A stretch of 64,000 nucleotides of DNA from Pirellulaceae bacterium (GTDB lineage: Bacteria > Planctomycetota > Planctomycetia > Pirellulales > Pirellulaceae). Position 1 is the stretch's first letter; every line of letters begins with the position of its first letter. Where the stretch lies: positions 602,058-666,057 of the forward strand of contig JBILTR010000001.1 in NCBI GenBank assembly GCA_044371425.1, in the 5' to 3' direction. The notes under the pieces were generated by a model, which was given only the letters and a program-made list of their open reading frames with translations, searched no databases and was not told the DNA's origin. Shown here piece after piece: positions 1,152 to 61,367 of the stretch. The position numbers were made by a program, and so were the translations under genes.

Positions 1152-3371
1152 CTACTTGCCAGGCGCTTCCGAGACGGGCTGCTCCTGCTTCCCTGCCTCC
1201 AGGGGTGGCATCGGCACTGGGGTGGGTTCCAGGTGCCTCGCGAGGTATTCGGTGCGGAGCCGTCCGTAGGTTCCACCGATCCCGTGATCGAACTGCGGAT
1301 AGATCATCATGTCGAACCGCTTGTTGGCATCATGAAGCGCCTTGGAAAGCTGCCAGGTGTTGGAAGGGTGGACATTGTCATCCACCAATCCATGTACCAG
1401 TAGCAACTTGCCACGAAGTTGCGATGCGTATTCCATGCAGGAGCCCAGTTGGTACCCTTCGGGATTCTCCTGCGGCGTGCGCATGTAACGCTCGGTGTAG
1501 ATCGTGTCGTAGTTTTTGAAGTTGGTCACCGGAGCGCCGGCCACCGCGACGTGGAAGAGATCGGGATAGCGCAGCACCGCTAGGGCCGCCATGTAGCCGC
1601 CATAGGAGTGCCCGAAAATGCCGACGCGCTGGGCATCCACCCAAGGCTGCTCAGCCAGATGACGGACACCCGCCGCTTGGTCGTCCAGATCGACGCCACC
1701 CAGTCTCTGGTAGGTTGCTGATTCGAATGCCTTGCCACGTCCCGTCGTGCCTCGATTGCCGATCTTTGCCACCACGACGCCGAGTTCACAAAGAGGATTG
1801 GCGGCACTGTAGCGGCACTGGAGCCCCTGGGAGGCAGGGCCTCCATAGACGTCGATCACCAGCGGATATTTGCGGCTGGGGTCGAAATGCGTCGGCTTTT
1901 GAAGGATGCCGTGAATCGTGGTGGTGCCGTCGGTGGAAACAAAAGAAAACCACTCGGCCGGCACCACTCCTGCTTGGCGCGCTGCCTGAGCCGATCCTTC
2001 TGCCAGCACCCATTCCCCCTGGTCGATTCCATAGACCACAGTGCTGGGCGGGGTGTCGACCATCTCCCGCACGGCGACCACATGTCGATGGTCCGGGGAG
2101 ATCTGAAATCCGGTGTGATGCAGTGGCGATCTGGTAACTCGCTGGGATTGAGTGCCATCGAGCCGTGCGCGATGCAACTGCGCGGCGTACGGATTGCTGT
2201 CGCTAAAGGCGGTGTAGTAAAGCCATCCCGCCGCTTCATCCACCTGCACCAGTTCACCGCACGGGTAGGGGACATCTGGGGTCAGATCGGCCAACAAACG
2301 GCCATCCAGATGCCGGAGCTGAAATCGCTTCCATCCATTCGACTCGGTCTCCCAGACGAAACGTTGGCCATCTTCAAGGAAGCGGATTGTCGGTGCATTT
2401 TCCTGCCAAGTCGGCTGCTTCTCCGACACCACGACGCGCTGGCGCAGCGTCACCAGGTCGATGGCGATCCAGTCGAGCACATCTTGGCGGCGGTTGGTGC
2501 GATGGACCAGCAGCTCCTTCCCATCGGGTGAGAACTGAATGCGGTAGAGATACTGCCGTGGTTCGCCGGGGATATCGATCTTTCGCTGGGTGCCGCTGGC
2601 TAGATCGTACAGCCAGAGAAAGACCTCGGGATTGCTGTCGCCCGCCTTGGGATAGCGGGAAGCGAGGATCGTGGTGTAAGAATCCAGGTTCCCTCCGGTC
2701 AGGTAATAGTCCTGCATCCCCTCTTCCCGCACTTCGTAGTAAGCGAGAGTCTGGCTGTCCGGCGACCACCAGATCGCATCCTGCTGAAACAGCTCTTCTC
2801 CGTAGACCCAGCAGCATGTGCCATATCGCCGTCGCTCTGTCCCATCGGTGGTCACCGCTACCGGGAAGCGCCCTTCCACCTGTCCGATAGGTTCCAGCCA
2901 GAGGTTGTTTTCGCGATGGATCGCTTTCCATTGACCATCGGGAGAGACCTCCTCCGTGCGTTGCTGGGCGCGCCCCACGGGAGCTCGACCCCTAGCCCCC
3001 CTTCCGGCATTGGGGGCGGCGGCTGCCGGGGGCACCGCTTCGGCTTCCGAAATCTTTCCGGTCGCTACATCCCATCGCTTTCTTGTCCCCTCGGTTCGGA
3101 AGGTCAGTCCACTTCCATCGGCATCCCAACTGGCCGCCTCGATTCGCCCACCAGTCTGGAACTGACGCATTTGCTGCGCCATCCGATCCATGCGTGCCAT
3201 CCCTTCGGCATGGCGAGCCAGATCCGAATGACCAGGAGGATCTTCTCCGCGGAGCGGTGCGATCAGGCGGATGGCGTCGAGTTTCGATTCCTGCAGCAGC
3301 ATCCCAATCGCCAGCAATCCCAAGAGTGCCTGCCCCACCGTCCAAGAACCATTGCGTCCGACGAAAGCCAT
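1152..3371 (-). CDS. S9 family peptidase (dipeptidyl-peptidase/acylaminoacyl-peptidase type). It has an N-terminal signal anchor and beta-propeller, and a C-terminal alpha/beta-hydrolase domain.
   Basis: GHSYGGYMAA nucleophile-elbow motif; FSPDGK/SPDGQW propeller repeats; 739-aa ORF with a hydrophobic N-terminus. Confidence 0.8.
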   Translation of the reverse strand: MAFVGRNGSWTVGQALLGLLAIGMLLQESKLDAIRLIAPLRGEDPPGHSDLARHAEGMARMDRMAQQMRQFQTGGRIEAASWDADGSGLTFRTEGTRKRWDVATGKISEAEAVPPAAAAPNAGRGARGRAPVGRAQQRTEEVSPDGQWKAIHRENNLWLEPIGQVEGRFPVAVTTDGTERRRYGTCCWVYGEELFQQDAIWWSPDSQTLAYYEVREEGMQDYYLTGGNLDSYTTILASRYPKAGDSNPEVFLWLYDLASGTQRKIDIPGEPRQYLYRIQFSPDGKELLVHRTNRRQDVLDWIAIDLVTLRQRVVVSEKQPTWQENAPTIRFLEDGQRFVWETESNGWKRFQLRHLDGRLLADLTPDVPYPCGELVQVDEAAGWLYYTAFSDSNPYAAQLHRARLDGTQSQRVTRSPLHHTGFQISPDHRHVVAVREMVDTPPSTVVYGIDQGEWVLAEGSAQAARQAGVVPAEWFSFVSTDGTTTIHGILQKPTHFDPSRKYPLVIDVYGGPASQGLQCRYSAANPLCELGVVVAKIGNRGTTGRGKAFESATYQRLGGVDLDDQAAGVRHLAEQPWVDAQRVGIFGHSYGGYMAALAVLRYPDLFHVAVAGAPVTNFKNYDTIYTERYMRTPQENPEGYQLGSCMEYASQLRGKLLLVHGLVDDNVHPSNTWQLSKALHDANKRFDMMIYPQFDHGIGGTYGRLRTEYLARHLEPTPVPMPPLEAGKQEQPVSEAPGK

Positions 3372-3889
3372 GATGACTCCTGTTTCCTTGCCGATACTCT
3401 GGGAATCGGTCCGGTTGCGGATCGAACAAAAAAGAATGCTCCCCGCAGGAGAAGCAACACTCGTTTTCTAACCTTTGGAACGCCGACTCGCCAGTGGCAA
3501 GCCACGATCGGATGGACTCGGCTTCTTCCCGTTTTGGAAGGTCGATGACCCTCCTCTGGCAGGAATCAGCAAGTCGGCACGCAGCGTCCGTCCCCAGCTC
3601 TTCCACTAGGCGTTCGCCGCAGCGCCGGGAGGGTCGATGCCAGCCGCAATCACCATGGGAACTGCAGACCCGAATTTTGACGCCGCAGCCTAAGGAGAGT
3701 CGATGCCAGCCACAATCACCTTCATCGGCCGAAGAGTCGTCCTATCGATGCCGCAAACGGGCACAGCCCGAACCCGAAAGATCACGAAGAGTCGCGAGAT
3801 GAGCCGACCGGAATCGAATGCTACCTGTCGACCGATCGACTGCATTGAATGGGGGTTGGGCGCGTCGACCGGGAGGGGAGGTTGAGCCA

Positions 3890-5819
3890 TCATGGAGATG
3901 CGGAGGGAGGGGCGACCTTCTTTTTTCGAAGCACTTCAATCGCCTCCAACATCCTGTCGTTGTCCGAGTTGAGTTCGGCAAGTGCGGCCAGAAATTCGGT
4001 TTGTTTCGATTCGGGGAGCTGCTCAAGGGAGTGCTCCATCCAGCGCTGGAGTTCCTCGAAGGGCTGGTCGTTCTTTTGGTCGATCGGTGTTTGCTGAGCC
4101 TGGGTCCAATGACGCACCGCGGCGACCAAACTGGCTTCTTGGGAAGGGAGATTCGCTTCCTGGGGTCCGAAGACCGTCAAGAAGGCTCGCATTTTCGAGT
4201 CGGCTTGCCATGGAGAGCGGCGCAGCGTTTCCTGGCAATTGAGGAACATCTGTTCGATCGGGCTGGGGGCTTGCTGTGGATCTCGAAGTCGACTGCGTAC
4301 ATCGCGCTCCGCTTGGCGAAGTTCCAGCGCCGAGAGCATCTTGCGGACCGCCGGTTGTCGAGGGTCCATCGGCTGTTCCAGCAGCCAACGATTCAGCCAT
4401 GACTGATGCTCGCGGATGATCGAAAAGTCTTCCTGCTGGAAGGCAGCGATCGTTTTCTCCAAAATGACATCGTCGCTAGGAACGCGTGTCCATTGTCTCC
4501 ATCCCCAAAAGCCGACCGCCAGTGCCAGGAGGAAAAAGACGATCGATGTCCAGTGCCAACCTTCCGCTTCCCACTCGTATTCCTTCTTCTTCTTTCGTTC
4601 ACGCCGTTTCATCTCCTCCAGCGTCGTGAATTCCGACTTTCGCGACATCGCCAACTCCGCTTCGGTCGGCTCGGGCATCAGTTTGCTCGGGGATGCGGCC
4701 AGCGTGGCAGCGGTGCCTTCCAGGGATGGCTTGGCGGCTTCGGAGGGAGGGTCGCGGTTCGGATCTGCGATGCGTGTCGAGAAGCCGGTTTGATCGCGCT
4801 TCAAATCGATCTGCTTTTCCCGAAGGACGCTGGCTGAATCGATCGACGAGGGCTCCATCTTTGCTTGGGAATCGGGTTCCTCCGAGGTTGGTGGGGGTGC
4901 GGATGGCTTGCTGCCGGAGCCTTCTCCTGCCGGATCAGACGCTCGATCCAGTCCGTGTCGAATGGCACGCACGCGATTGCCGATGACCAGGGCGGTGGGG
5001 GGACGCTTGGCGGGATCTTTCTGCAGAAGCTCGTGGATCAGGCCTTCCAGTGCCTCAGGGGTCTTGGGCGCCAGCGTCCGGACCGGCGGAAATTGCTCGT
5101 AGCGCACCGAATAAAGCACTTCGGGGACCGATCGCCCGACAAACGGTGGTCTGCCCGTCAGAGCGAAGTAGGCGATGCTGCCGACCGAGTAGAGGTCGCT
5201 TTTGCTGGTTACCGCTTTGCCCTCGGCCTGTTCGGGAGGCATGTAATCGGCGGTGCCGACGATACTGCCTGCTGCGGTCATTTCCTCGCCACCAAAAAAC
5301 TTGGCGATCCCAAAGTCGGCCAGTTTCACATTGCCCTCGTGGTCCAGCATGATGTTGGCCGGTTTCAGATCGCGGTGGATCACCCCTTGATCGTGCGCCG
5401 TTTTGAGCGCCGCACACATCTCGCCGATCAGTCGGCAGACGTCGCGCCACTGCATCGGTCCATCCCGTTTGATCCGATGGTGAAGGCTTTCCCCTTGCAC
5501 AAACTCCATCGAATAAAAAAGCTTTCCTTTTTCTTCGCCATATCCGATCAACTGAATGATGTGCGGATGCTGGAGTTTCTTGAGCGTTTCCACCTCGGCG
5601 GCAAACCGCCTGCGAAAGCGTTCTTGATCGGCAAGGGAGTTGGCGATCACCTTGATCGCCACGGGCTGGCCGGTTTTGGCGTGGGTTCCTTCGTAGACGA
5701 TCCCCATGCCCCCCTGCCCCAGCACCCGCTCGACCTTGTAAGGGCCGAGGAAATCCGATGGCGCCTCGGGACTCGCGCCGGGGTCAATCGGATCGGAAGA
5801 TGTCATAGGAGTTTCCTTC

Positions 5820-6852: not shown

Positions 6853-8904
6853 TTGGCAAGGAAGAGGATCACAAGAACGATGGAACGGGCCTTTCGGTTG
6901 GAATCGTGGCTGGGTATTGATCAGGATCCCTCGTGGCTAGGTGCCGGTCAGCGGCCGGTGGTCTCACAGGGAGAAGGGCCTAGTGGCTCTCTTCCTCTTT
7001 CCGACCAGATGTTGCGGGAGTGGTCCAGTGGCGATCTATTCGGCTGGACGCAGAATGCCGGGATGGGGTGGCCTCCCAGCAAAATGCTAGGTCCGCAGTT
7101 TCTGCTGCTGAGCACCCAAGGGGGAATCCGCGCCGAAGATGGCAGTCCCGTGGCTCTCGGCTATCACACGGGGCACTGGGAAGTTGGCCTGCTGATGCGC
7201 GAGGCAGCGCGATGGATCGAGCAATCGGGTGGAGTGCCTTTTGCAGGGTTCGTCAGCGATCCTTGCGACGGGCGCACCCAGGGGACGGTCGGCATGTTCG
7301 ATTCGCTTCCCTATCGCAACGATGCTGCGATCGTCCTGCGTCGCTTGATCCGTTCCCTGCCGACACGCCGTGGCGTGATGGGGGTGGCCACTTGCGACAA
7401 GGGACTCCCCGCGATGATGATCGCTTTGGCCGGATCCAGCCAGCTTCCTTCGGTTTTAGTGCCGGGTGGCGTCACCTTGCCGGCCAAGGGAGCGGAGGAT
7501 CTTGGCAAGGTCCAGACGATCGGAGCCCGTTACTCGCATGGAGAGATCTCCCTGGAAGCGGCTGCGGAAGCGGGTTGCCGCGCCTGCGGTTCCCCTGGTG
7601 GTGGCTGCCAATTCCTTGGAACCGCGGCCACCAGCCAGGTCGTCGCCGAAGCGCTGGGGATGACCGTCCCTCATGCAGCCCTCGCCCCCAGCGGACAGCC
7701 GCTCTGGCTGGAAACCGCTCGACGCAGCGCCCAGGCACTCTGGGACATGCATCAACGCAAACAGACGCTCGCCGATTTCCTCACCGAAGATTCGTTCCAC
7801 AACGCCCTGGCGGTTCACGCCGCTTGCGGCGGATCGACAAACCTACTGCTCCATATTCCCGCCGTCGCTCATGCAGCCGGTTTGCGCCGGCCTGATGTCC
7901 AGCAGTGGCGTGCCATCAACCTCCAGGTTGCACGGTTCGTCGACTGCCTTCCCAACGGACCTGCCTACCATCCGACCGTCCGGTTTTTTCTCGCCGGCGG
8001 GGTACCGGAGTTGATGTGGCACTTACGGGAATTGGGGGTGGCTCGCTGCGATGCACGCACGATCACTGGCGAAACCTGGCATACCATCCTCGATGCATGG
8101 CATCGATCTCCACGCCGCGCCCAGTTGCGGCAGTGGCTCCTCGAGAATGACGGGGTCGACCCCGATCAGGTGATCTATCCCCCTGCAGCGGCACGCACCG
8201 CGGGGATGACCAGCACGGTTTGCTTCCCGGTCGGCAATCTCTGCCCCGAGGGCTCGGTAATCAAATCGACCGCCATCGATCCCAGCGTGATCGATCCAGA
8301 TGGGGTCTACCGCAAGCAAGGACCGGCGCGCGTCTTCACCACCGAGAAAGAAGCTGTTGCGGCGATCAAAGGGCAGCACCCGCGCCCGATCCGTCCAGGA
8401 GACATTTTGATTCTGATCGGACGTGGTCCGCTGGGATCGGGCATGGAGGAAACCTACCAGGTGACCAGCGCCCTGAAGCACCTTTCTTGGGGCAAGGAGG
8501 TGGCGGTGGTCACCGACGCGCGATTTTCGGGGGTCAGTACGGGTGCCTGCATCGGTCACGTAGGCCCCGAGGCGTTGGCTGGGGGACCCATCGGCCGCGT
8601 CCGCGATGACGATTGGATTGCAATTCAGATCGATCGCATTCGATTGACCGGAAGCGTCGACATGGTCGGCTGTGTCGATCGGCGGCTTGATCCCCACCAA
8701 GCTAACCAGTTGCTAGCCTCCCGAACCGCTCACCCTGCCCTGCAGCCCGACCCGCGGCTTCCTGACGACACGCGCTTATGGGCCGCACTGCAACAGGTTG
8801 GCGGTGGCACCTGGGGCGGATGCGTCTACGATGTCGCTGCGATCGTCGAAACGCTGGAAGCAGGCCGAAAAGCGTTGGCCGAGCGAAAGGCCGATCAGCG
8901 GTAG
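6853..8904 (+). CDS. IlvD/EDD-family dehydratase (dihydroxy-acid / sugar-acid dehydratase). The start codon is uncertain.
   Basis: CDGRTQGT and [17 protein letters not shown] Fe-S cluster motifs; length and order match YjhG/IlvD-type enzymes. Confidence 0.8.
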
Positions 8905-10793
8905 ATCCGATTGCGACCAGGGCCACCATCGAGCAGACTGTCGAGGCGGTCGCCATAAAGCCAATCGTCTCCCAAGCCTCCCAGCAACTGATCGACCCCC
9001 GCTTCACCCCAAAGGCGATCGTTCCCATCGCCTCCTTCCAGGCGGTCGTTGCCACTGCCTCCATAGAGCCAGTCGTGACCCGCCTGACCAAGGAGTTGGT
9101 CTGCCCCCGCCTCACCAAACAGCCAATCGTCCCCGTCGCCTCCATCGAGAAAATCATCGCCACTGCCACCGTAGATCCGGTCGTTGCCCGCACCGCCGAA
9201 GAGTCGATCGTTCCCTTGGTAGGAATAGAGGAAATCGTTTCCTCCCTCGCCGTGCAGTTCGGTGCTGCCGCCTCCCGCATACAGCTGATCATTCCCATCG
9301 CCCCCGCGGATACTGGAAGGCAGCACGATCGTTCTGGCGATCAACACCCAGTCGTGCCCATCCGCAGCATCGATCGAAACTCCCGTCAGGGCGTTCAGTT
9401 CGAATCTCCCTTGCCGGACGCCATTGACGGTCACCTGCACTTGGCCTGCGATCCGTTCGACCAGAATGCGGTCGGGACCCGCAGTGCCTCGCACCGTCAG
9501 AATGCCACCGATCACCGAAACCGTCGCGGGGGTTGGAGCCGGAATGTCCATGCGCTGACTGGTCGCCAAGCCAACGGATCGACCCATCGAGAGCCCTAGC
9601 TCGTTATCGAACCTCCAGTGGATCCCACCATAAAGCCGACTGTCGGCCGATTCCTGAGCCGCTTGGTCGACCGAACTGTAGGAGCGGGCTTCTGCGGCGG
9701 GGTTTTCGCTGGCAGCGGTGAAGGGAAGTTGACTGGTGCCAAAAAAACGAGTCAGCACTGTCGCCATCGCGCCACTGAAAGTGGCATGGCCCGAGGTGTA
9801 GCTTGGGAAGTTGGGCGTGGTCAGCAATGGGGTCCACGTCGGATCGGCCTGGGTGGCTGCATTGCCATCGTCGGCCGCTTTGCGGATCCCGGTGATGGGA
9901 CGCCAGAAATCGGATCGGTACTTGATGTCCCAGCAGACGATCGCCGAGTCAGCCAGCGCGAGGTTGAGGATCGCCATCAGACGCGCATTGTCCGAAAGTG
10001 TCGTCCCGCGGCTTTCGGCAATCGTCCTGGCCATCAGATTCAGATGCCCTGGTGGCGTCGCCGTCCCGGCTCCATTGGCCCAGAAATTAGCGATCTGAGT
10101 CTGATCGGGGGTCCGCGTCGAACTGGTTGCACTGCCGATCTGCTTGACCTCATCGAAGGCGGCAGTGTACTGCGCGCTGTCGAGGGCAGGCGGTGGACCG
10201 GGCCGAAAGGCGCTGCCACTAGAAATCGCAAAGGGACGCACTCCAGGCCATTGTGGCAGCAGCGCAGGCGCCAGCGCCGGAGGCGTCGGCTCCCAGTCTC
10301 CAGGCTGTCCACCAGGAGTGTAGGTCACCGAGTTCTGCGACCCATCATTGGCGCGAGCCGCAAGCATTGCGTCTGCTGCCCGACCACCCGCAGCGATGCC
10401 CGCCTGCTTGTCGAGTCCCTCCGGGACCTTGGCCAGCCACTCCTGTCGATTGGCCTGGAACTTGGCGACTTGAGCTGGGAACAGATTCGATAGCACCCGA
10501 GTGGCCGCCTCTGCGATCGCTGCTTCCCTGGATGCCGTGGGAGGAGCCGCCGGTACCGAAAGGTAGGTCCCATTTCGCTGGTCGATCGACTCGACCGCGT
10601 CATAAACCGCACCATGCAGCATCGCCAGTGCCCGGGATGCCACCGGAGGAGAAGTCCTGTCGGTGCGAATGGCCGCCAAGGCTTCATCGTTCCAATCGAA
10701 GATCGGATCGGCATGCATCAAGTGACGCTGCTCCAATCCCTCCAGTCTCAAAACACGCACGGGACGGGATGCCACTCTTTTTTTGATGCTCAT
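8895..10793 (-). CDS. PAP2 / vanadium-dependent-haloperoxidase-like domain protein with C-terminal hemolysin-type (RTX) calcium-binding repeats.
   Basis: All three PAP2 signature motifs are present: [16 protein letters not shown] and [12 protein letters not shown]. At least 14 GGxGxDxL nonapeptide repeats occur at the C-terminus. The start is set at MSIKKRV (ATG 10791-10793) because a GAGGAGG RBS lies 7 nt upstream. There is no N-terminal signal peptide. Confidence 0.75.
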
Positions 10794-50908: not shown

Positions 50909-51706
50909 TCAGGGCTGCTTGGGCACCACAGGTGGCAGAGGCTTGCCATCGGGAACGAATCGCACCGAAATCGAATTGACGCAGTGCCGGGTGTTCTTCA
51001 GGGTAAAACCTTCTCCTTCGAACACATGTCCCAGGTGGCCATCGCAATTGGCGCAGAGAATCTCGGTGCGATACCCGTCGGCATCGACTTCGCGTCGCAC
51101 CGAATCGGGGATCTCATCATCAAAGCTAGGCCATCCGCAATGGCTATCGAATTTGTCGCTGGACCGATACAACGGCGCGTTGCAGCGACGGCAGAGGTAG
51201 GTGCCTTTTTCTTTGTGGTTCCAATACTCTCCCGTAAACGCTCGCTCGGTCCCCTTGTGCAGGATGACATATTGCTCATCGCGACTGAGCGTGTTGTACT
51301 GGCCGGGGGCGGGAGTCTTTTCGGAGGATGCCACTTCGGCTAGCGCGCTTTGCGGATCGTCCTGCGAAGCAATCTTCTTGGGATCAGCGATCATGGCGGA
51401 TTCCTTGGTATCAGCGGCGAGGGGGGCAGAAGAGGTAGAGGAATCGACCGAAGTTTCTCGCGCCGAAGCCTGGTTGGCAACCGGGGGAGGAGGGGTCTGT
51501 TGGGAGACCACTTCGGAGTTGGGGGTCGCGGGAGGGGGGAGACGCTTGCCGGCGATGAAAAGGGCGGCAAGTGCCACGCCCACGATGGCGAAAGCAAGGA
51601 GTCGGGTTGGAAGCGGCATGGTGTCGTTCCTCCGGGGTGAACTGGCGAGAGGCGTGCAGGTCAGCGAGGACCAAGGCCGCGGTGGGATTTTCAAAAAAGG
51701 ATCCAC
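50909..51706 (-). CDS. msrB: Peptide-methionine (R)-S-oxide reductase MsrB with an N-terminal membrane anchor and low-complexity linker.
   Basis: Two CxxC pairs (CRRCNAPLY..., [12 protein letters not shown]) and the catalytic RHCVNS motif. Confidence 0.8.
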
Positions 51707-51812
51707 CGGCCTGTTGGTAGCTTAGAGGATCGCAAACCCCAAGTCGACCCGAAAGGGGAGTCCCCCGCCGATCCGCAGGGGTGCCGAGGGCCAAAAAAAC
51801 TTGCAGGAACAG

Positions 51813-51939
51813 ACCCAAGGTGTGCAATAGGACAGCCCCGGGCAATGCCTTGGGATTGGTTTCATCTTTCATGCACAGCGCCCCGCACGTCGGCATGTGC
51901 ACACCCAAGGTGTGCTATGTGAAAGCCCGGGGCAACGCC
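51813..51939. repeat. Pair of ~37-bp direct repeats (acccaaggtgtgc.a.{13}agccc.gggcaa.gcc) 90 bp apart in the hsdM upstream region.
   Basis: R1 is 51813-51849 and R2 is 51903-51939. Each ends in a short palindrome. Confidence 0.6.
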
Positions 51940-52151
51940 CCGGGGAACGGCGACAGCCACCCCACCCCATCCTCACCATCCGCCCCGACGGGGCGAGACG
52001 ATACAATAACCAATGACGCAAAAAAAGCGTCGATTTCGGAGGCGTGAGGAGGGACGGTTGGCGAGCACAACCGCTTGGGAAGGTTCTGACGTATCTCGAT
52101 CCTATCGTCCTCTGAATCCCTAGGCTGCCAGAATACCGAGGAGACCATTCG

Positions 52152-53771
52152 TTGCACTGGATTGCACCCACCGAAAAAGATACGGCGGCCGCGTCGCTGG
52201 AAAAGCGACTTTGGGACGCGGCCGATCAGTTCCGCGCCAACTCGGGGCTCAAGGCCCAGGAATACTCTGGCCCTATTCTTGGACTGATTTTTCTCCGATT
52301 CGCCGAAGTGCGTTTTGCCGCCCAGCGCGCCAAACTGGAAAAAGCCGGAACTTCGTCCCGTCGAGGTAGCCGGGTGGATGAACCCGCTGCCTACCATGCC
52401 GATAACGTGCTGTATCTGGCTGCCGAGGCGCGCTTCGATCACCTGCTGACCTTGCCCGAGGCGGTCGACATCGGCGCCAAGGTCAACGCCGCGATGCGCG
52501 AGGTGGAAAAACACAATCCGCAACTGGCCGGCGTGCTACCCAAGACCTTCAATCTCTTCACCAGCACCCTGCTCAAGGAGCTGCTGAAAAAAATCTCCGA
52601 GATCCCGGCCACACTCGACTTCGATGCCTTCGGCAGGATCTACGAATATTTTCTGGGCGAGTTCGCGATGAGCGAGGGCCAGGGCGGTGGCGAGTTCTAT
52701 ACGCCCGCCAGCATCGTGCAGTTGCTGGCGCAGGTGATCGAGCCCTTCCATGGGCGCATTCTCGACCCCGCCTGTGGATCGGGGGGTATGTTCGTGCAAT
52801 CGGCGCGGTTCGTGGCCGAGCATCATAAGAACCCGGCTGCCGAACTCTCCATCTGTGGCGTCGAGAAGACCGACGAGACCGGCCGACTGGCGCGCCTGAA
52901 CCTCGCCGTGCACGGGCTGGAGGGGGACATCCGCCACGGTGGTAACGTGAACAGCTACTACGACGACCCGCACAATGCCACCGGCCAGTTCGATTTCGTG
53001 CTGGCCAATCCACCCTTCAATGTGAACGCGGTGGACAAGGAGCGGATCAAGGACATGGTCGGCACCGGTCGGCGTTTCCCCTTCGGACTGCCGCGCACCG
53101 ACAACGCCAACTACCTCTGGATCCAGCTCTTCTGCTCGGCGCTGAATGCCAAAGGCCGCGCTGGTTTCGTTATGGCCAACTCGGCCTCCGATGCGCGCAG
53201 CAGCGAGCAAGAGCTACGGCAGAAGCTGATCGAGGCGCAGGCGGTGGATGTCATGGTGGCCGTCGGTCCCAACATGTTCTACACCGTGACGCTCCCCTGC
53301 ACGCTGTGGTTCCTCGACCGGGGCAAGGCTAAGACGAACCGCGCCGAGACCGTGCTCTTTATCGATGCGCGTCATATCTACCGCCAAGTCGATCGCGCCC
53401 ACCGCGATTGGACACCGGCGCAGATCGGATTCATCGCCAACCTCGTGCGACTCTATCGCGGCGAAGCGCCTGACTTGACCGTGGGGGGCCAGGAGACCGA
53501 AGCCAAGCTGAAAGAAGTCTTTGGTAAGAAGCCGAAATATGCCGACATCCCGGGCCTCTGCAAGGCAGCGACGATCGAGCAGATCGAGTCGCAGGGTTGG
53601 TCGCTGAACCCCGGCCGCTATGTCGGCGTGGCTCCGGGCGAAGAGGTGAGCGACGAGGATTTTAAATCGCAGCTTCAATCGCTGAACGAGGAATTGGAAA
53701 CCCTCAACGCCCAAGCGCGGGAATTGGAAGCGACCATTGCCAAAAACGTAGCAGGGATTTTGGAGATATGA
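52152..53771 (+). CDS. hsdM: Type I restriction-modification system DNA methyltransferase subunit M.
   Basis: N6-adenine MTase motifs DPACGSGGM and LANPPFN; HsdM N-terminal domain LWDAADQFR. Confidence 0.9.
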
Positions 53772-54622
53772 AAACAGAATTGGTTCAGGCGTTAAACACC
53801 ACATTCGAAGGGCATGCTCAGCAAACAGAAAGCGGCGTTGAGTTCTGGCTCGCGCGGGATCTTCAGCACTTACTGGGCTATTCAAAATGGGACAATTTTC
53901 TGGGCGTGGTTGTAAAGGCAAAAACCGCCTGTGATGTCTCTGGGCACCCGGTGGGCGACCATTTTGCCGACGTCGGGAAAATGGTCGATCTGGGCTCGGG
54001 TAGCCAGCGGGAAATTGACGACATCATGTTGACTCGCTATGCCTGCTATCTGATTGCTCAGAACGGCGACCCGAGGAAACTGGAAATCGCCTTTGCGCAG
54101 ACCTACTTCGCCGTCCAGACTCGTCGAGCTGAACTGATTGAACAACGTTTGCTTGAGGCCGAGCGAGTTTCGGCTCGCAAAAAGCTCAGCGTTACTGAAA
54201 AGGAACTGTCGGATGTCATCTTCGAGCAAACCGGTGGCAATAATGACTTCGCGTTGATTCGCAGCAAAGGGGACCAGGCTCTCTTTGGAAAATCGACCCA
54301 GGCGATGAAAGCTCAATGGAAAGTCCCGGACAGTCGCCCTCTAGCCGACTTCGCCCCGACGATCATTTTGAAAGCCAAGGACTTTGCCACAGAGATTACG
54401 ATCTTCAATGCGCGCCAGCATGGAATGAGCAGCGAGTCGGCGATTTCTCGCGAGCATGTGACGAACAACCAGGCGGTCCGCAACACGCTGCTGGAACGTG
54501 GCATTCGGCCCGAGGCTCTGCCGGCAGCCGAGGATGTGAAGAAAGTCGAGCGACGTTTGGCCTCTGAGGAGAAAAAATCGCTGCAGAATCCTGAAGGCCT
54601 CACCGCGGAGGAACAGCAATGA
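53768..54622 (+). CDS. dinD: DinD-like (DNA-damage-inducible protein D, Bro-N domain) protein embedded in the type I R-M operon.
   Basis: [32 protein letters not shown] and [12 protein letters not shown] are DinD-like. The ATGA start overlaps the hsdM stop. Confidence 0.65.
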
Positions 54623-54639
54623 GCGAACTTATAAGATTT

Positions 54640-54697
54640 GCCCAAACGCGGGAATTGGAACAAACCATCGCCGCCAATGTGGCGGGGATTTCGGAGG
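54640..54697 (+). pseudogene. Relic duplicate of the 3' end of hsdM between dinD and hsdS.
   Basis: About 80% nt identity over 57 bp to 53709-53765. It would encode AQTRELEQTIAANVAGISEG, compared with the HsdM C-terminus [20 protein letters not shown]. Confidence 0.7.
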
Positions 54698-54698
54698 G

Positions 54699-55923
<1,225 letters not shown>

Positions 55924-55931
<8 letters not shown>

Positions 55932-57015
55932 AATCACCCCGCTGCCCGCCGACTACGCCCCGCTGCTGGCGGAGATCAAGGCCCGCGTGCGGCATGCGCA
56001 GACCCGCGCCGTGATGGCGGTCAATGCGGAGCTGATCCGCCTGTATGGGGAGATCGGTGCGCTGATCGACCAGCGCCAGCAACAGGAAGGCTGGGGAGCC
56101 AAGGTGATCGAGCGTCTGGCCCGCGACCTGCACAACGAGCTGCCCGAAGAAAAGGGCTTTTCCGAGCGCAACATCAAGCGGATGCTGGCCTTTTATCGGG
56201 CCTACCCGCACTTTGTGCCACAGGCTGTGGCACAAATGGGGGGCAAACCAGAAGTGCCGGAGGCCGTGGCACTTTTTCCGACCGATCTCTTGCTGGCGCT
56301 GCCCTGGGGGCATCACAGCGAGCTGCTCGCCAAGGTCAAGGATGCAGCCACCCGACAATGGTACATGCAGGCAGCGGTTCGGTTCGGGTGGAGCCGCAAC
56401 ATTCTGCTGATGCAGATCGAGACCTCGGCGCACCTGCGCCAGGGAAAGGCGACCACGAATTTTTCCGAACGCCTGCCGCCACCGGCATCGGACATGGCGC
56501 AGCAGTCGCTGAAAGACCCCTACATCTTCGACTTTCTTACCCTCGCCAACGGGTTTCATGAGCGGGAGCTGGAAACCGGGCTGGTGGCCCATCTGGAGAA
56601 GTTTCTGCTGGAGTTGGGCCAGGGCTTCGCCTTCGTGGGAAGACAGTATCACCTAGATCTCGGCGGGGATGACTTCTACATCGATCTGCTGTTCTATCAC
56701 CTGAAGCTGCGCTGCTTCGTGGTGATCGACCTCAAACGCGGGGACTTCAAACCCGAATACGCCGGCAAGATGAACTTCTACTGCAATGTGGTGGACGACC
56801 GACTGCGCCATGCGAGCGATGCGCAAACCATCGGACTGATTTTGTGTCAGCAACCCAATAGGGTTCTCGCCGAGTACGCGCTGCGCGGCATCGACAAACC
56901 CATCGGTGTGTCGACCTATGAACTGACTCGGGCACTGCCTACGGAACTGCAAACCAGCCTGCCCAGCATCGAGGAGCTCGAGCGGGCGCTGGCCGACCAT
57001 TCAGGAGACGAATAG
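55924..57015 (+). CDS. DUF1016 / YhcG-family PD-(D/E)xK nuclease-like protein, copy 1.
   Basis: The N-terminal NAELIRLYGEIGALI...GWGAKVIERLARDL is YhcG-like. C-terminal PD-(D/E)xK motif YIDLLFYHLKLRCFVVIDLKRGDFKPEYAGKMNFY. The start overlaps the hsdS stop by 8 bp. Confidence 0.8.
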
Positions 57016-57017
57016 CC

Positions 57018-57064
57018 ATGAGCCCGCACGCCTACACCGAAGACCAACTCGTTGAACAGCCCGC
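57018..57064 (+). pseudogene. Relic duplicate of the 5' end of hsdR.
   Basis: A 47/47-nt identical match to the hsdR start at 58212-58258 (atgagcccgcacgcctacaccgaagaccaactcgttgaacagcccgc). Confidence 0.8.
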
Positions 57065-57186
57065 CATCGGGTTGTGCTCCCACCGGGTGCCTTTGGGCAA
57101 GGGGCGCTTGCATCATTCGCGGCTTTCTCCAACCGACGGTTGGACTTGCCGGGCATTGGCCACTAGCAAGGCCAGGGAGGAACGCT

Positions 57187-58215
57187 ATGACTGATTATCT
57201 ACCTTTGCCTTCCGACTACAACCAGCTCCTTGCCGAGGTGAAAGATCGCATCCGTTCGGCCCAGTATGCTGCACTCAAAGCAGTCAATACCGAGCTTGTC
57301 GGACTGTATTGGGATCTAGGCCGCTTGATTGTGGAGAAACAGGAGCAATCGGGGTGGGGTAAATCCGTGGTTGAACGACTCTCTCAAGACTTGCGGAAGG
57401 AATTCCCCGGCGTGGCCGGTTTCTCGGTCCAGAATCTCTGGTATATGCGCCAATTCCATCTGGAATATCGGGAACATGAAAAACTCCAACCACTGGTTGG
57501 AGAAATCGCCTGGGCACACAACTTGGTCATCATGAGCAAGTGCAAAGACCCTCTCGAGCGGGAATTCTACCTGCGAATGACTCGCAAGTTCGGCTGGTCA
57601 AAAAACGTACTGATCCACCAAATCGCGAACCAGAGCTACGAGAAGTCCTTGCTGGGGCAGACCAATTTCGACCAGACCCTGACGCCCGCGCTCCGGTCAC
57701 AGGCCAAGCTGGCCGTGAAGGATGAATACACCTTCGATTTCCTGGAACTGGCCGAAGAACACAGTGAACGAGAGCTTGAGCGGGCTCTCATCGCCCGCGT
57801 TGAAGACTTCCTTCGGGCCATGGGTGGCTTGTTTGCCTTCATGGGAAGCCAGTATCGGCTTGAGGTCGACGGCCGGGAGTATTTCTTGGACCTACTCCTG
57901 TTCCATCGGCGATTGCGATCTCTGGTGGCCATCGAACTAAAGATTGGCGATTTTCAACCCGAGTTCGTTGGCAAGATGCAGTTCTATTTGACGGCGCTGG
58001 ATCGACAGGTACGGCAGGACGATGAGAACCCGTCCATTGGTATCATCCTATGCAAGGAGAAGAACCGCACCATCGTCGAGTATGCACTGCATGATGCCAA
58101 CAAGCCCATCGGCGTGGCGACTTACGAGATCACTCGGACGCTACCCAAGGAACTGAAGGAGCAATTGCCTCGGCCCGAGGAGATCGCGGCATTGCTCGAG
58201 GGGTTCGATCCATGA
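57187..58215 (+). CDS. DUF1016 / YhcG-family PD-(D/E)xK nuclease-like protein, copy 2. It is diverged from copy 1 and has visibly lower GC.
   Basis: NTELVGLYWDLGRLI...GWGKSVVERLSQDL and YFLDLLLFHRRLRSLVAIELKIGDFQPEFVGKMQFY. The TGA stop overlaps the hsdR ATG. Confidence 0.8.
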   Translation: MTDYLPLPSDYNQLLAEVKDRIRSAQYAALKAVNTELVGLYWDLGRLIVEKQEQSGWGKSVVERLSQDLRKEFPGVAGFSVQNLWYMRQFHLEYREHEKLQPLVGEIAWAHNLVIMSKCKDPLEREFYLRMTRKFGWSKNVLIHQIANQSYEKSLLGQTNFDQTLTPALRSQAKLAVKDEYTFDFLELAEEHSERELERALIARVEDFLRAMGGLFAFMGSQYRLEVDGREYFLDLLLFHRRLRSLVAIELKIGDFQPEFVGKMQFYLTALDRQVRQDDENPSIGIILCKEKNRTIVEYALHDANKPIGVATYEITRTLPKELKEQLPRPEEIAALLEGFDP

Positions 58216-61200
58216 GCCCGCACGCCTACACCGAAGACCAACTCGTTGAACAGCCCGCGATCGGACTCTTTGCTGCATTGGGCTGGCAAACGATTTCGGC
58301 TATGGAAGAAACCTTCGGCCCCGACGGTACGTTTGGCCGCGAGACCAAAGGGGAGGTGGTGCTGACCGATCGACTGCGGGCGGCACTCACCAAGCTCAAC
58401 CCTGGCCTGCCCGCCGAGGCGATCCAGACCGCTATCGACGAACTGGCCCGTGACCGCTCGGCCATGAGCCTGGAGGCCGCCAACCGCGAGGTGTACCGAC
58501 TACTCAAGGAGGGTATTCCGGTTTCCATCCCCGACCGCGAGCACGGCGGGCAGAAGACCGAGCGGCTGCGCGTGGTCGATTGGGAACACCCAGAACAGAA
58601 CGATTTTCTACTAGTCAGTCAGCTTAGCGTGGTCGGCAGCCTCTACACCTGCCGGCCTGATCTGGTCGGTTTTGTGAATGGCTTGCCTTGGGTGGTGATC
58701 GAACTGAAGAAGCCCGTCGTGCCGGCGCGCGCAGCGTTCGATGAGAACCTGACGCACTACAAGAAAGAGATCCCGCAGCTCTTCTGGTTCAACGCCCTGC
58801 TGATCGCCAGCAACGGCACCGACAGCCGCGTCGGGTCGCTGACTGCCGACTGGGAACGGTTCTTCGAGTGGAAGCGGATCGAGCGTGAGGACGAGCCGCG
58901 CCGCGTGTCGATGGAGGTGATGCTGCGCGGCACCTGCGACCCCAATCGGCTGCTCGACTTGGTAGAGAATTTTACGCTCTTCTCCGAGCACAAAGCGGGC
59001 CTGGTGAAGGTGCTGGGCCAGAACCACCAGTTCCTCGGCGTCAACAACGCGATCCGCTCCATGCTGGAAGCCCGCAAGCTGGGCCACGGGCGCGGCGGTG
59101 TGTTCTGGCAGACGCAGGGAAGCGGCAAGAGTTTTTCGATGGTGTTCTTCGCGCAGAAGGTGCTGCGCAAACTGACCGGCAACTGGACCTTCGTGGTGGT
59201 GACCGACCGGGTGGAACTGGATGAGCAGATCGCCAAGACCTTCAAGACCGTAGGTGCGGTGAGCGAAGCAGAGGGGGACCAGTGCCATGCCGCTAGCGGG
59301 GCGCACCTGCGCGAGTTGTTGCGAGGCAACCATCGCTACGTGTTCACGCTGGTGCACAAGTTCCAGACGCCGGAGATGCTCACCGATCGTTCGGATGTGA
59401 TCGTGCTGACCGACGAAGCGCATCGCAGCCAGTACGATACCCTGGCGCTGAACATGCGGGCGGCGCTGCCCAAGGCCCTATTCTTGGCCTTCACCGGTAC
59501 TCCACTGATCGCGGGCGAAGAGCGTACCAAGGAGGTTTTTGGCGACTATGTGTCGATCTATGACTTCCAGCAATCTGTTGAGGACGGCGCGACGGTGCCG
59601 CTGTTCTATGAGAACCGCACCCCCGAGTTGCAACTGGTCAACCCTGATCTCAATGACGACATTTATGACCTGATTGAGAACGCCAGTCTTGACGAACAGC
59701 AGGAGGCGAAGCTGGAGCAAGCACTGGGACGGCAATACCACCTGATTACGCGCGACGACCGGCTGGAGACGGTGGCTGCAGATATCGTCACGCATTTTCT
59801 AGGCCGGGGCTTCCTCGGCAAGGCGATGGTTGTTTCCATCGACAAGGCCACGGCGCTGCGGATGCACGACAAGGTGAAGAAACACTGGGCCGCCGAGACG
59901 GCGCGTGTGCAGAAGGAACTGAACCGCTACGACCTGCCAGATTTAGAAAAGGCAGCGCTGCGGCACCGACTGGAGGTGCTGACTACCACCGACATGGCGG
60001 TCATCGTCTCGCCGGGGCAGAACGAAATCGAGCAGATGAGGAAGCTAGGGATCGACATCGAGCCGCACCGTAGACGCATGAACGATTCTCAGCCCGGACT
60101 GGACGAGAAGTTCAAGGACACGAACGATCCACTGCGTCTGGTGTTCGTCTGTGCCATGTGGCTGACCGGTTTTGACGCCCCGAGCTGTTCGACGGTTTAC
60201 CTCGACAAGCCGATGCGCAATCACACGCTGATGCAGACGATCGCCCGCGCGAACCGCGTCTTCCCAGGCAAGCACAGTGGCGTGATTGTGGACTACGCCA
60301 ATGTGTTCGCCTCGTTGGAGAAAGCGCTGGCCATCTACGGCGCGGGCAAGGGTGGCACGAACCCGGTCAAGGACAAGGCCGAGTTGGTCGCAGCCCTGCG
60401 GGAGGCGATCGCTGAGGTTACCTCGTTCTGTGCCGGCCATGGCGTCGACCTTGCCGCGATGGAAACCCTTCCCGTGGCTGGGATGGAGCGACTGGCTGCG
60501 ATTGAGGACGCGATCGATTCGCTGATTGGTCCTGATGCGGTGCGACGGGAGTTTCTCGGTCACGAAAAATTCGTGAGCACGCTGTATCGCGCCGTCAAAC
60601 CCGATCCAGCAGCAGTTGAATTTTCGATGAGAGTGGCGGGGATTGTGACACTTGCTGGAGCGATCCGAGAAAGACTGAACCCCAACTCGCCCGATATCTC
60701 CACCATTTTGCAGCAGATTGGCGGTCTGCTGGACGATTCGATCACCGGCTTGACGATTCGTGAAGAGGGGCCACCCGCCATCGACCTTTCGAAAATCAAC
60801 TTCGAGGCGCTGGCCAATCGGTTCAAGGAATCGAAACACAAGAATACCGACCTTGAGGCATTGAAGACGGCCATCGCGGCAAGGCTGGAGAAGCTGGTTC
60901 GATTGAACCGAACCCGAGCCGACTTCGCCGAACGATTCGAATCGCTGATCGAGAGTTACAACAATGGCAGCCGCAACATCGAACAGCTCTTTGAGGAACT
61001 GCTCAAGCTGTCGAATAGCCTGGACAGCGAGCAGGAGCGTCACGTGCGCGAGAATCTCAGCGAAGAAGAGCTGGTGATCTTCGACATTCTGACGCGTCCC
61101 GCGCCGGAGTTGACGACCGCCGAACGCGACGAAGTAAAAAAGGTTGCCAGAGATCTACTCTCGCGTCTGAAGAGCTTGCTGGTGCTCAACTGGCGGCAGA

Positions 61201-61367
61201 AATCTGCCGCGCGATCGACTTTGAAATTGGCGATCGAAGACACGCTGGATACATTACCGGCTGCCTACGACCGGCCGTTGTTCGCGCAGAAATGTTCGGC
61301 GCTTTTCGAGCATGTTTATGAGAGCTACCCGGAACTGAATTCGGGAGTCTATGCTGGGCTGACCTGA
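58212..61367 (+). CDS. hsdR: Type I restriction enzyme endonuclease/helicase subunit R.
   Basis: Helicase motifs GSGKS and DEAH; FTGTP; 1051 aa; typical HsdR N-terminal start MSPHAYTEDQL. Confidence 0.9.
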   Translation: MSPHAYTEDQLVEQPAIGLFAALGWQTISAMEETFGPDGTFGRETKGEVVLTDRLRAALTKLNPGLPAEAIQTAIDELARDRSAMSLEAANREVYRLLKEGIPVSIPDREHGGQKTERLRVVDWEHPEQNDFLLVSQLSVVGSLYTCRPDLVGFVNGLPWVVIELKKPVVPARAAFDENLTHYKKEIPQLFWFNALLIASNGTDSRVGSLTADWERFFEWKRIEREDEPRRVSMEVMLRGTCDPNRLLDLVENFTLFSEHKAGLVKVLGQNHQFLGVNNAIRSMLEARKLGHGRGGVFWQTQGSGKSFSMVFFAQKVLRKLTGNWTFVVVTDRVELDEQIAKTFKTVGAVSEAEGDQCHAASGAHLRELLRGNHRYVFTLVHKFQTPEMLTDRSDVIVLTDEAHRSQYDTLALNMRAALPKALFLAFTGTPLIAGEERTKEVFGDYVSIYDFQQSVEDGATVPLFYENRTPELQLVNPDLNDDIYDLIENASLDEQQEAKLEQALGRQYHLITRDDRLETVAADIVTHFLGRGFLGKAMVVSIDKATALRMHDKVKKHWAAETARVQKELNRYDLPDLEKAALRHRLEVLTTTDMAVIVSPGQNEIEQMRKLGIDIEPHRRRMNDSQPGLDEKFKDTNDPLRLVFVCAMWLTGFDAPSCSTVYLDKPMRNHTLMQTIARANRVFPGKHSGVIVDYANVFASLEKALAIYGAGKGGTNPVKDKAELVAALREAIAEVTSFCAGHGVDLAAMETLPVAGMERLAAIEDAIDSLIGPDAVRREFLGHEKFVSTLYRAVKPDPAAVEFSMRVAGIVTLAGAIRERLNPNSPDISTILQQIGGLLDDSITGLTIREEGPPAIDLSKINFEALANRFKESKHKNTDLEALKTAIAARLEKLVRLNRTRADFAERFESLIESYNNGSRNIEQLFEELLKLSNSLDSEQERHVRENLSEEELVIFDILTRPAPELTTAERDEVKKVARDLLSRLKSLLVLNWRQKSAARSTLKLAIEDTLDTLPAAYDRPLFAQKCSALFEHVYESYPELNSGVYAGLT

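Follow-up and report, generated by a model that had tools for sequence, protein, structure and literature searches.

The window, that is, the whole 64-kb stretch of DNA that was analysed, carries a type I restriction-modification (RM) operon. Pfam searches identified HsdM, HsdS and HsdR domains in co-oriented genes, and the corresponding PADLOC models scored 782 bits (MTase_I), 268 bits (Specificity_I) and 582 bits (REase_I). The HsdM protein is 89-93% identical to 120 database HsdM proteins. The dinD gene is located between hsdM and hsdS (the M/S junction). Its product matched the NCBIfam equivalog NF008573 with 376.9 bits (cut-off 242) over residues 1-277 of 284, a full-length match above the curated equivalog cut-off, and was also recognized as the PADLOC candidate PDC-S13 (385.7 bits). 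Two YhcG/DUF1016 nuclease genes, named here YhcG#1 and YhcG#2, are located between hsdS and hsdR (the S/R junction). The coordinates of all features are given in Table 1. The same locus was found unchanged in several JGI samples.

The genes are tightly packed: positions 52152-61367 form an unbroken chain of eight overlapping or abutting ORFs when two short ORFs, one at each junction, are included, and the longest untranslated gap is then 2 nt. These two ORFs, which carry copies of hsd gene ends, occupy the sole places in this interval where a gap would otherwise be found. The ATG of YhcG#1 overlaps the end of hsdS by 8 nt, and the TGA of YhcG#2 overlaps the hsdR ATG. No promoter-like or terminator-like site was found between dinD and hsdS.

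The neighbour genes are glnE, msrB, an M28 peptidase gene and a gene for a GAF-SpoIIE protein. No match to transposase or integrase families was obtained in the five flanking ORFs scanned. Upstream of hsdM a 52-nt direct repeat (77%; 51803-51854 and 51893-51944, 90 nt apart) was observed, with a CCCGGG...CCTTGGG hairpin.

Table 1. Features of the type I RM operon (window coordinates).
Feature	Position	Strand	Evidence or remark
hsdM, type I methyltransferase subunit	52152-53771	+	Pfam N6_Mtase 252 bits, HsdM_N 72.5 bits
Live repeat copy (last ~85 nt of hsdM)	within 52152-53771	+
Live hsdM terminus, upstream repeat copy	53709-53772	+	TGA overlaps dinD ATG (ATGA)
dinD, embedded cargo, DNA-damage-inducible protein D family	53768-54622	+	NCBIfam NF008573, Pfam Bro-N, PADLOC PDC-S13
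GGAGG, Shine-Dalgarno-like motif	54607-54611	+	inside dinD coding end, 7 nt upstream of mini-ORF ATG
Mini-ORF, 27 codons (putative bridge)	54619-54702	+	retained original hsdM/hsdS junction; core repeat 54640-54703
GGAGGGG, hsdS Shine-Dalgarno	54693-54699	+	inside last mini-ORF codons
hsdS, specificity subunit	54705-55931	+	Pfam Methylase_S; PADLOC Specificity_I; JGI gene call, same ATG
YhcG/DUF1016 PDDEXK nuclease #1, S/R-junction cargo	55924-57015	+	Pfam YhcG_C 218.9 bits, DUF1016_N 128 bits; PADLOC PDC-S02
Second putative bridge ORF, 58 aa	57018-57194	+	53 nt at its start copied from the hsdR 5' end (98%)
YhcG/DUF1016 nuclease #2	57187-58215	+	Pfam; tblastn (42% identity to #1)
hsdR, restriction subunit	58212-61367	+	Pfam HSDR_N, SWI2_SNF2, T1RH-like_C

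Copies of hsdM and hsdR ends at the two junctions

The original prediction held that the segment 54640-54697 is about 80% identical to the hsdM terminus. Both the coordinates and the sequences were confirmed: when 54619-54710 was compared with the remainder of the window by blastn, one strong match was obtained, 53709-53765 (78.9% over 57 nt, E=4.4e-9), the next-best match in the window having an E value of 0.05. A repeat search aligned 53709-53772 with 54640-54703 without gaps (49/64 nt, 77%; spacing 931). When the 27-aa translation was used as a tblastn query, the hsdM end was the only match in the window (E=2e-5). The proposal that dinD is flanked by a copy of the hsdM 3' end on either side, as the footprint of a recombination or insertion at the M/S junction, is supported. 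Both copies are in the same frame, with the stop codon at the homologous position; the downstream copy ends in AQTRELEQTIAANVAGISEG followed by the stop. Judged against the family consensus, the homology probably reaches back to the dinD stop codon, over about 84 nt with one 3-nt indel (54620-54702 versus approximately 53686-53771).

The downstream copy forms a complete ORF, with an ATG that overlaps the dinD TGA (ATGA). Its own TGA (54700-54702) overlaps a GTG at position 54699 (GTGA), which is an alternative start of hsdS, and is located 2 nt before the hsdS ATG (TGA-AG-ATG). The stop/start-overlap geometry is thus found both between dinD and the mini-ORF and between the mini-ORF and hsdS, and likewise in 17 other loci. 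The Shine-Dalgarno sequence of the downstream gene, GGAGGGG, is located within the upstream ORF. Shine-Dalgarno-like cores precede the mini-ORF start in 8 of the 18 loci, against a background of about 15%. In the JGI records the 27-codon ORF was not called as a gene; the 58-codon ORF at the S/R junction was.

At the S/R junction, the segment 57016-57070, between the two YhcG genes, is a 98% copy of the hsdR start (58210-58264). The ORF that contains it, 57018-57194, starts 2 nt past the YhcG#1 stop codon, its TGA overlaps the YhcG#2 ATG, and it was called as a gene by JGI in loci L175 and L177. Part of its non-hsdR portion matches the sequence upstream of YhcG in locus L085. Judging by this arrangement, 57018-57194 appears to be a second bridge formed from a junction copy. 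The two YhcG proteins are only 42% identical and are therefore not the product of a recent tandem duplication. At the DNA level, an identity of 72% was found between the C-terminal ends (56867-56949 versus 58073-58155).

A related structure was observed in locus L082 (10287-10616), where a 109-aa ORF joins about 96 aa of an HsdR N-terminus, in frame, to the HsdS C-terminal motif LLSGQIDVE. This ORF has an SLFN/AlbA_2 ATPase gene on either side, stops and starts overlapping, and its composition is what an unequal crossover with duplication of the S/R junction would leave behind.

Related loci and the ancestral junction

DinD homologues (78-89% identity) were taken from 80 genome loci and 80 metagenome loci. 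An hsdM end of the same family was found directly upstream of dinD in 29 of the fetched DinD loci. Inspection yielded 17 distinct DinD-derived loci with the layout cargo, hsdM-end copy, hsdS, and one more locus, L083, was found via an HsdM relative and has YhcG instead of dinD as the cargo before the copy. The layout is therefore present in at least 18 loci from several phyla, including Planctomycetota, Verrucomicrobiota, Cyanobacteria, Proteobacteria, Lentisphaerota and others, and the HsdM proteins of these operons are 59-93% identical to that of the window. These findings discard the idea of an event particular to this genome; the type I RM family concerned is a widely transferred one.

Analysis of relatives in which hsdM directly precedes hsdS allowed us to ask which copy is ancestral, a check proposed with the original prediction. 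In all six of these cargo-less loci (L085, L166-L170) the hsdM end matched the downstream copy of the window (45-52/63 nt) better than the live hsdM end (39-49/63 nt). Hence, it is the live hsdM end that is derived, and the supposed relic corresponds to the original M/S junction. We regard this nucleotide comparison as decisive for the question. An identity count over 20 residues against 120 HsdM C-termini was uninformative on ancestry because the copy carries private changes.

The protein ends fit into the same picture. Most of the 120 closest HsdM proteins end in ...LEQTIAANVAGILE(A/G) and share the Q and the A of the copy at the two positions that differ from the live end of the window, which is a minority type among these 120 proteins. 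In L085 and L166-L169, where hsdM has the common end, hsdS comes directly after it, and the same order is seen in L170. The minority end type (codon NNA followed by TGA) is followed by cargo: dinD in P0005 and P0007, a 44-aa ORF and YhcG in P0050, and a RAYT-like gene in P0001. No sharp recombination breakpoint was found inside hsdM in 90-nt bins: the last bin gave 0.69-0.78 against cargo-less relatives and the neighbouring bin 0.79-0.84, a modestly higher divergence of the last bin, which gave 0.89 against the dinD-linked locus L082. A RAYT-like (REP-associated transposase-like) gene directly after hsdM was observed in L081 (7734-7913).

Several loci depart from the common arrangement. In L043 no copy is present and the dinD stop codon overlaps the hsdS ATG directly, showing that the copy is dispensable where dinD and hsdS are coupled without an intermediate. 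An in-frame fusion of DinD to the hsdM-end copy is present in L138, and in L056 an ATG on the dinD stop codon reads in frame straight into hsdS. Locus L087 contains, in the order dinD, copy, rhuM, copy, copy, hsdS (3202-4700), three copies, each of which is a stop/start-overlapping ORF; its copy 1 ends in the cargo-proximal sequence type CTCGAAGCATGA. All four variants (L138, L043, L087 and L056) keep an uninterrupted translatable path to hsdS. Two further loci, L004 and L016, are degraded. After copy 2 of L087 the sequence ATGAAAAC remains from a dinD start. In L092 (2002-2124), dinD has an hsdM end before it and the beginning of another hsdM (MIWIAPSEKD...) after it, an order suggestive of tandem or rearranged type I operons.

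A scan of viral contigs with HsdM yielded no relatives. A tblastn search of plasmids yielded relatives with less than 60% identity only, four of which were inspected. In L171 and L172 hsdM is followed directly by hsdS, and L174 has cargo without a detectable copy. The fourth, L173, is the plasmid NZ_CP016487 of the cultured Picosynechococcus sp. PCC 8807, whose HsdM is 57% identical to that of the window. In this plasmid hsdM is followed first by a VapC module with a copy behind it (88% over 78 nt) and then by MNT-HepT with another copy (80% over 75 nt), after which comes hsdS. No bridge ORF was found in L173: the hsdS-proximal copy has no in-frame start and neither copy abuts the next start. 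Bridging is therefore not universal, and the duplication process is more general than bridging. The L173 copies are located at about 8194-8271 and 8901-8975, and both cargo modules end in ...DSQ(R/L)-stop inside the repeat.

Constraint on the downstream copy and its retention

The reading frame of the downstream copy is conserved over a wide range of lengths. In 13 of the 18 loci the cargo stop codon shares nucleotides with an ATG or GTG (ATGA/GTGA), and a start is found within +6 nt in three more. In most loci the stop codon of the copy overlaps the hsdS start or is located within a few nt of it, typically as GGAGGCGTGAnnATGG. The distance from the cargo stop to the copy stop varies from 62 to 302 nt, and 13 of the 14 distinct distances equal 2 modulo 3 (binomial P about 6e-6, with the lengths treated as independent, which overstates their independence); L056, described above, is the exception. 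In eight loci (L008, L012, L024, L083, L087, L090, L091 and L133) the copy contains one to four REP-like palindromic insertions. The insertion sites differ, and the frame of the copy is open throughout, the other frames having one to three stops. Some of these insertions could in principle predate the duplication. The inserted palindromes, which recur in hsdM-end copies, have the form ...CTCTCCCGCTGGGAGAGG...GGTGAGGG....

The two halves of the copy differ in their constraint. For six REP-free loci, the mean pairwise amino acid identity of the copies was 0.46 in the 5' half and 0.82 in the 3' half, versus 0.79 and 0.66, respectively, for the live hsdM ends. The last 21 nt are GTGGCGGAGATTCTGGAGGCG in most copies, nearly invariant with synonymous sites included. 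Over the last 27 nt of the copies, differences at third positions (0.33) equalled those at first and second positions (0.33); the values for the live ends were 0.47 and 0.24. A GGAGG homologous to that of the window is nearly invariant in the hsdS-proximal copies and in cargo-less hsdM ends. Such a pattern is what would be expected from a translated spacer with a nucleotide-level initiation signal rather than from a functional peptide.

These results show that the downstream copy, which had been called a relic, is not a decaying one: it is the conservative one of the two, its last 21 nt hardly vary, and it has been kept as an open ORF with a start codon. The idea of an insertion footprint therefore stands with respect to the origin by duplication and fails with respect to the status of the copy. 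The original prediction had named a conserved hsdS coupling signal as the finding that would count against it. Such a signal is likely to be the reason why the copy was retained, and it is compatible with a duplication.

We favour, with some reservation, the explanation that a duplication of about 85 nt accompanied an ancestral cargo insertion and that the hsdS-proximal copy persists as a translated bridge which preserves hsdS initiation. The last 85 nt or so of hsdM would have a dual use, coding for the HsdM C-terminal helix and providing the hsdS initiation region, that is, GGAGG, a stop codon and an ATG 0-2 nt later. Recombination of cargo, in this case dinD, into the M/S junction would have duplicated this segment; insertion would have required such a duplication, after which the two roles could be separated. 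The upstream copy now completes HsdM, is joined to the dinD start by ATGA and has diverged at its very 3' end. The copy downstream is the original junction, now a short ORF from the cargo stop to the hsdS start, through which ribosomes leaving dinD could be relayed to hsdS in its native initiation context.

The duplication, its spread among lineages, the ancestral state of the downstream copy, the conservation of the frame and of the ORF, and the nucleotide conservation at the 3' end are observed in the loci compared. Translation of the mini-ORF and the exact course of the recombination are deduced from these observations. The frame conservation (P about 6e-6) lends indirect support to a dependence of hsdS translation on translation of the mini-ORF. 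Initiation at hsdS could be independent as well, since hsdS has a strong GGAGGGG of its own. Taken together, the feature is best described as a conserved coupling element that is probably translated.

That the copy could be a neutral insertion scar, without present function and decaying, appears improbable to us. The strong divergence of its 5' half, the 3-nt indel in the window, its absence from L043 and the degraded loci L004 and L016 are all in agreement with decay. Against this, conservation in the 3' half of the copy exceeds that of the live gene end, at synonymous sites too; the frame and the start have been kept over 14 length variants and several REP insertions, which puts a neutral explanation under strain from the frame statistic; and the architecture is maintained among operons with HsdM proteins only 59-93% identical to that of the window. 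A product acting as a peptide is far less probable still. In this case the 27-aa product would mimic the C-terminal helix of HsdM, bind HsdS and modulate methyltransferase assembly, in accordance with the conservation of the last 14 or so HsdM residues and with a model in which the HsdM C-terminal helix lies along HsdS helices (PMC3510504). However, the N-terminal half is unconstrained (0.46 identity), the helix tolerates inserts of about 9-18 REP-encoded residues, mini-ORF lengths range up to about 100 residues, and the peptide is fused to DinD in L138 and absent in L043. The conservation of this part at synonymous sites, seen in the residues that are kept, also points to a signal at the nucleotide level. 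Equally hard to credit is a selected cis-acting RNA structure, namely the hairpin ATCGCCGCCAATGTGGCGGGGAT at 54669-54691, immediately upstream of the ribosome-binding site of hsdS. Folding gives a 9-bp hairpin for the window and for many hsdS-proximal copies, which the live hsdM end has lost (GCC to AAA), but the RNAalifold consensus was weak and lacked support from covariation (-5.2 kcal/mol, covariation term -0.07, one compensatory pair) and REP insertions have removed the 5' arm in L008, L012, L083, L087 and L090. Rfam covariance models gave no match at E<=1 in the interval 51500-58500.

Another explanation concerns the origin and mobility of the cargo and is compatible with a bridging ORF: the copies may be direct-repeat boundaries of cassettes, through which RecA-type recombination inserts, excises or shuffles cargo between type I operons. 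We consider it possible, although rather doubtful. The presence of a copy after every cargo module in the multi-cargo arrays L087 and L173 would be accounted for, as would the end of copy 1 in L087, CTCGAAGCATGA, which fits a crossover of a donor hsdM end with the resident copy. Also in agreement are the common slot of dinD, YhcG and RAYT-like genes behind the same minority hsdM end type and the analogous hsdR-5'/hsdS-3' chimeras at the S/R junction. On the other hand, neither presence/absence polymorphism nor an excised circle was observed, and repeats of 64-85 nt at 77-88% identity are ill suited to homologous recombination. They may moreover be by-products that each viable insertion must create, because the hsdS ribosome-binding site is located inside hsdM. 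A more far-reaching version, to which we give a similarly low probability, combines both roles: the hsdM-end copies of about 85 nt would be recombinase-independent boundaries in an integron-like operon array. Such an array would gather and exchange genes for defence, namely dinD, RhuM, YhcG and toxin-antitoxin pairs, and the repeats would double as translated couplers for hsdS and, at the S/R junction, for hsdR.

Relation to known couplings, insertions and embedded genes

Translational coupling through the hsdM/hsdS overlap has been proposed for the classical E. coli type I systems and stated for EcoKI (PMC3510504), where it was modelled on the trpB-trpA stop/start overlaps (PMC3510504). The junctions of EcoKI and of classical type I systems (Roberts et al. 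2012, PMC3510504) share with the window a stop/start overlap or a gap of 0-2 nt, an hsdS ribosome-binding site within the end of the upstream ORF, and different frames. The difference is that the upstream ORF of the window is a 27-codon remainder of hsdM located after an inserted gene, and that its coupling is proposed here on the basis of sequence alone.

The putative bridge refines known principles and is not a new kind of system. A comparable arrangement has been constructed artificially. In the synthetic "bicistronic design", reportedly introduced by Mutalik and colleagues in 2013, a short leader ORF holds the downstream ribosome-binding site and its stop codon overlaps or abuts the next start, so that initiation is said to be independent of context. 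The hsdM-end bridge would be a natural counterpart of such leader-cistron designs, with the difference that it derives from the duplication of a gene end and would be fed by reinitiation at the cargo stop codon.

Flanking duplications are known to arise from homology-facilitated illegitimate recombination and from Campbell-type single crossovers. The structure of the window resembles the expected product: an hsdM anchor and a second join would leave the cargo flanked by two copies of the anchor end, the upstream one being of the donor type. No donor, circle or junction microhomology was identified, and the mechanism is deduced from its product.

Two other origins were considered and rejected. 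Transposon target-site duplications are near-identical repeats of 2-15 bp; the repeat is 64-84 nt long with 77% identity, and no terminal inverted repeats were found around dinD. Integron arrays resemble L087 and L173 in having the same short repeat after each cargo module. However, no integrase was found in the five flanking ORFs scanned, the boundary repeat is a piece of the host gene, namely hsdM coding sequence, and has no attC-type palindrome, and site-specific recombination is not in evidence.

Genes embedded in type I RM operons are known, among them PrrC and TgvAB (PMC11411939). Candidates identified by their embedding in RM operons have been listed (Payne et al. 2024, bioRxiv 10.1101/2024.01.29.577857), and dinD, RhuM and DUF1016 genes have been located between hsd genes (PMC9881135). 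The window likewise has dinD (PDC-S13) and YhcG/DUF1016 (PDC-S02) between core hsd genes. In the searched text on PrrC, TgvAB, Payne et al. 2024 and PMC9881135, neither a duplicated host-gene end nor a bridge ORF beside an embedded gene is mentioned. Embedding and hsdM-hsdS coupling are thus already known; the literature searched, which left most subscription journals outside, contained no description of an hsdM-end duplication, remnant or bridge ORF. Nor did it address how a gene can enter the junction of two overlapping genes linked by translational coupling while expression of the second gene is maintained.

The window and its 17 or so relatives suggest a rule for such insertions: a gene end of dual use is duplicated, after which one copy codes for protein and the other would serve initiation as a tiny translated ORF. 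Since embedded RM-operon genes are now used for the discovery of antiviral defences, a copy of a host-gene end beside a cargo gene may be of use as a signature for recognizing insertions, for distinguishing ancestral from derived junctions and for detecting cassette exchange. The rule also predicts that unannotated mini-ORFs of this type have been missed by gene callers.

A further observation concerns the profiles used to annotate embedded genes. The PADLOC "Specificity_I" model PDLC03083 (717 positions) matches DinD over its first 265 or so positions with 163 bits, which points either to the existence of DinD-HsdS fusions or to contamination of the model.
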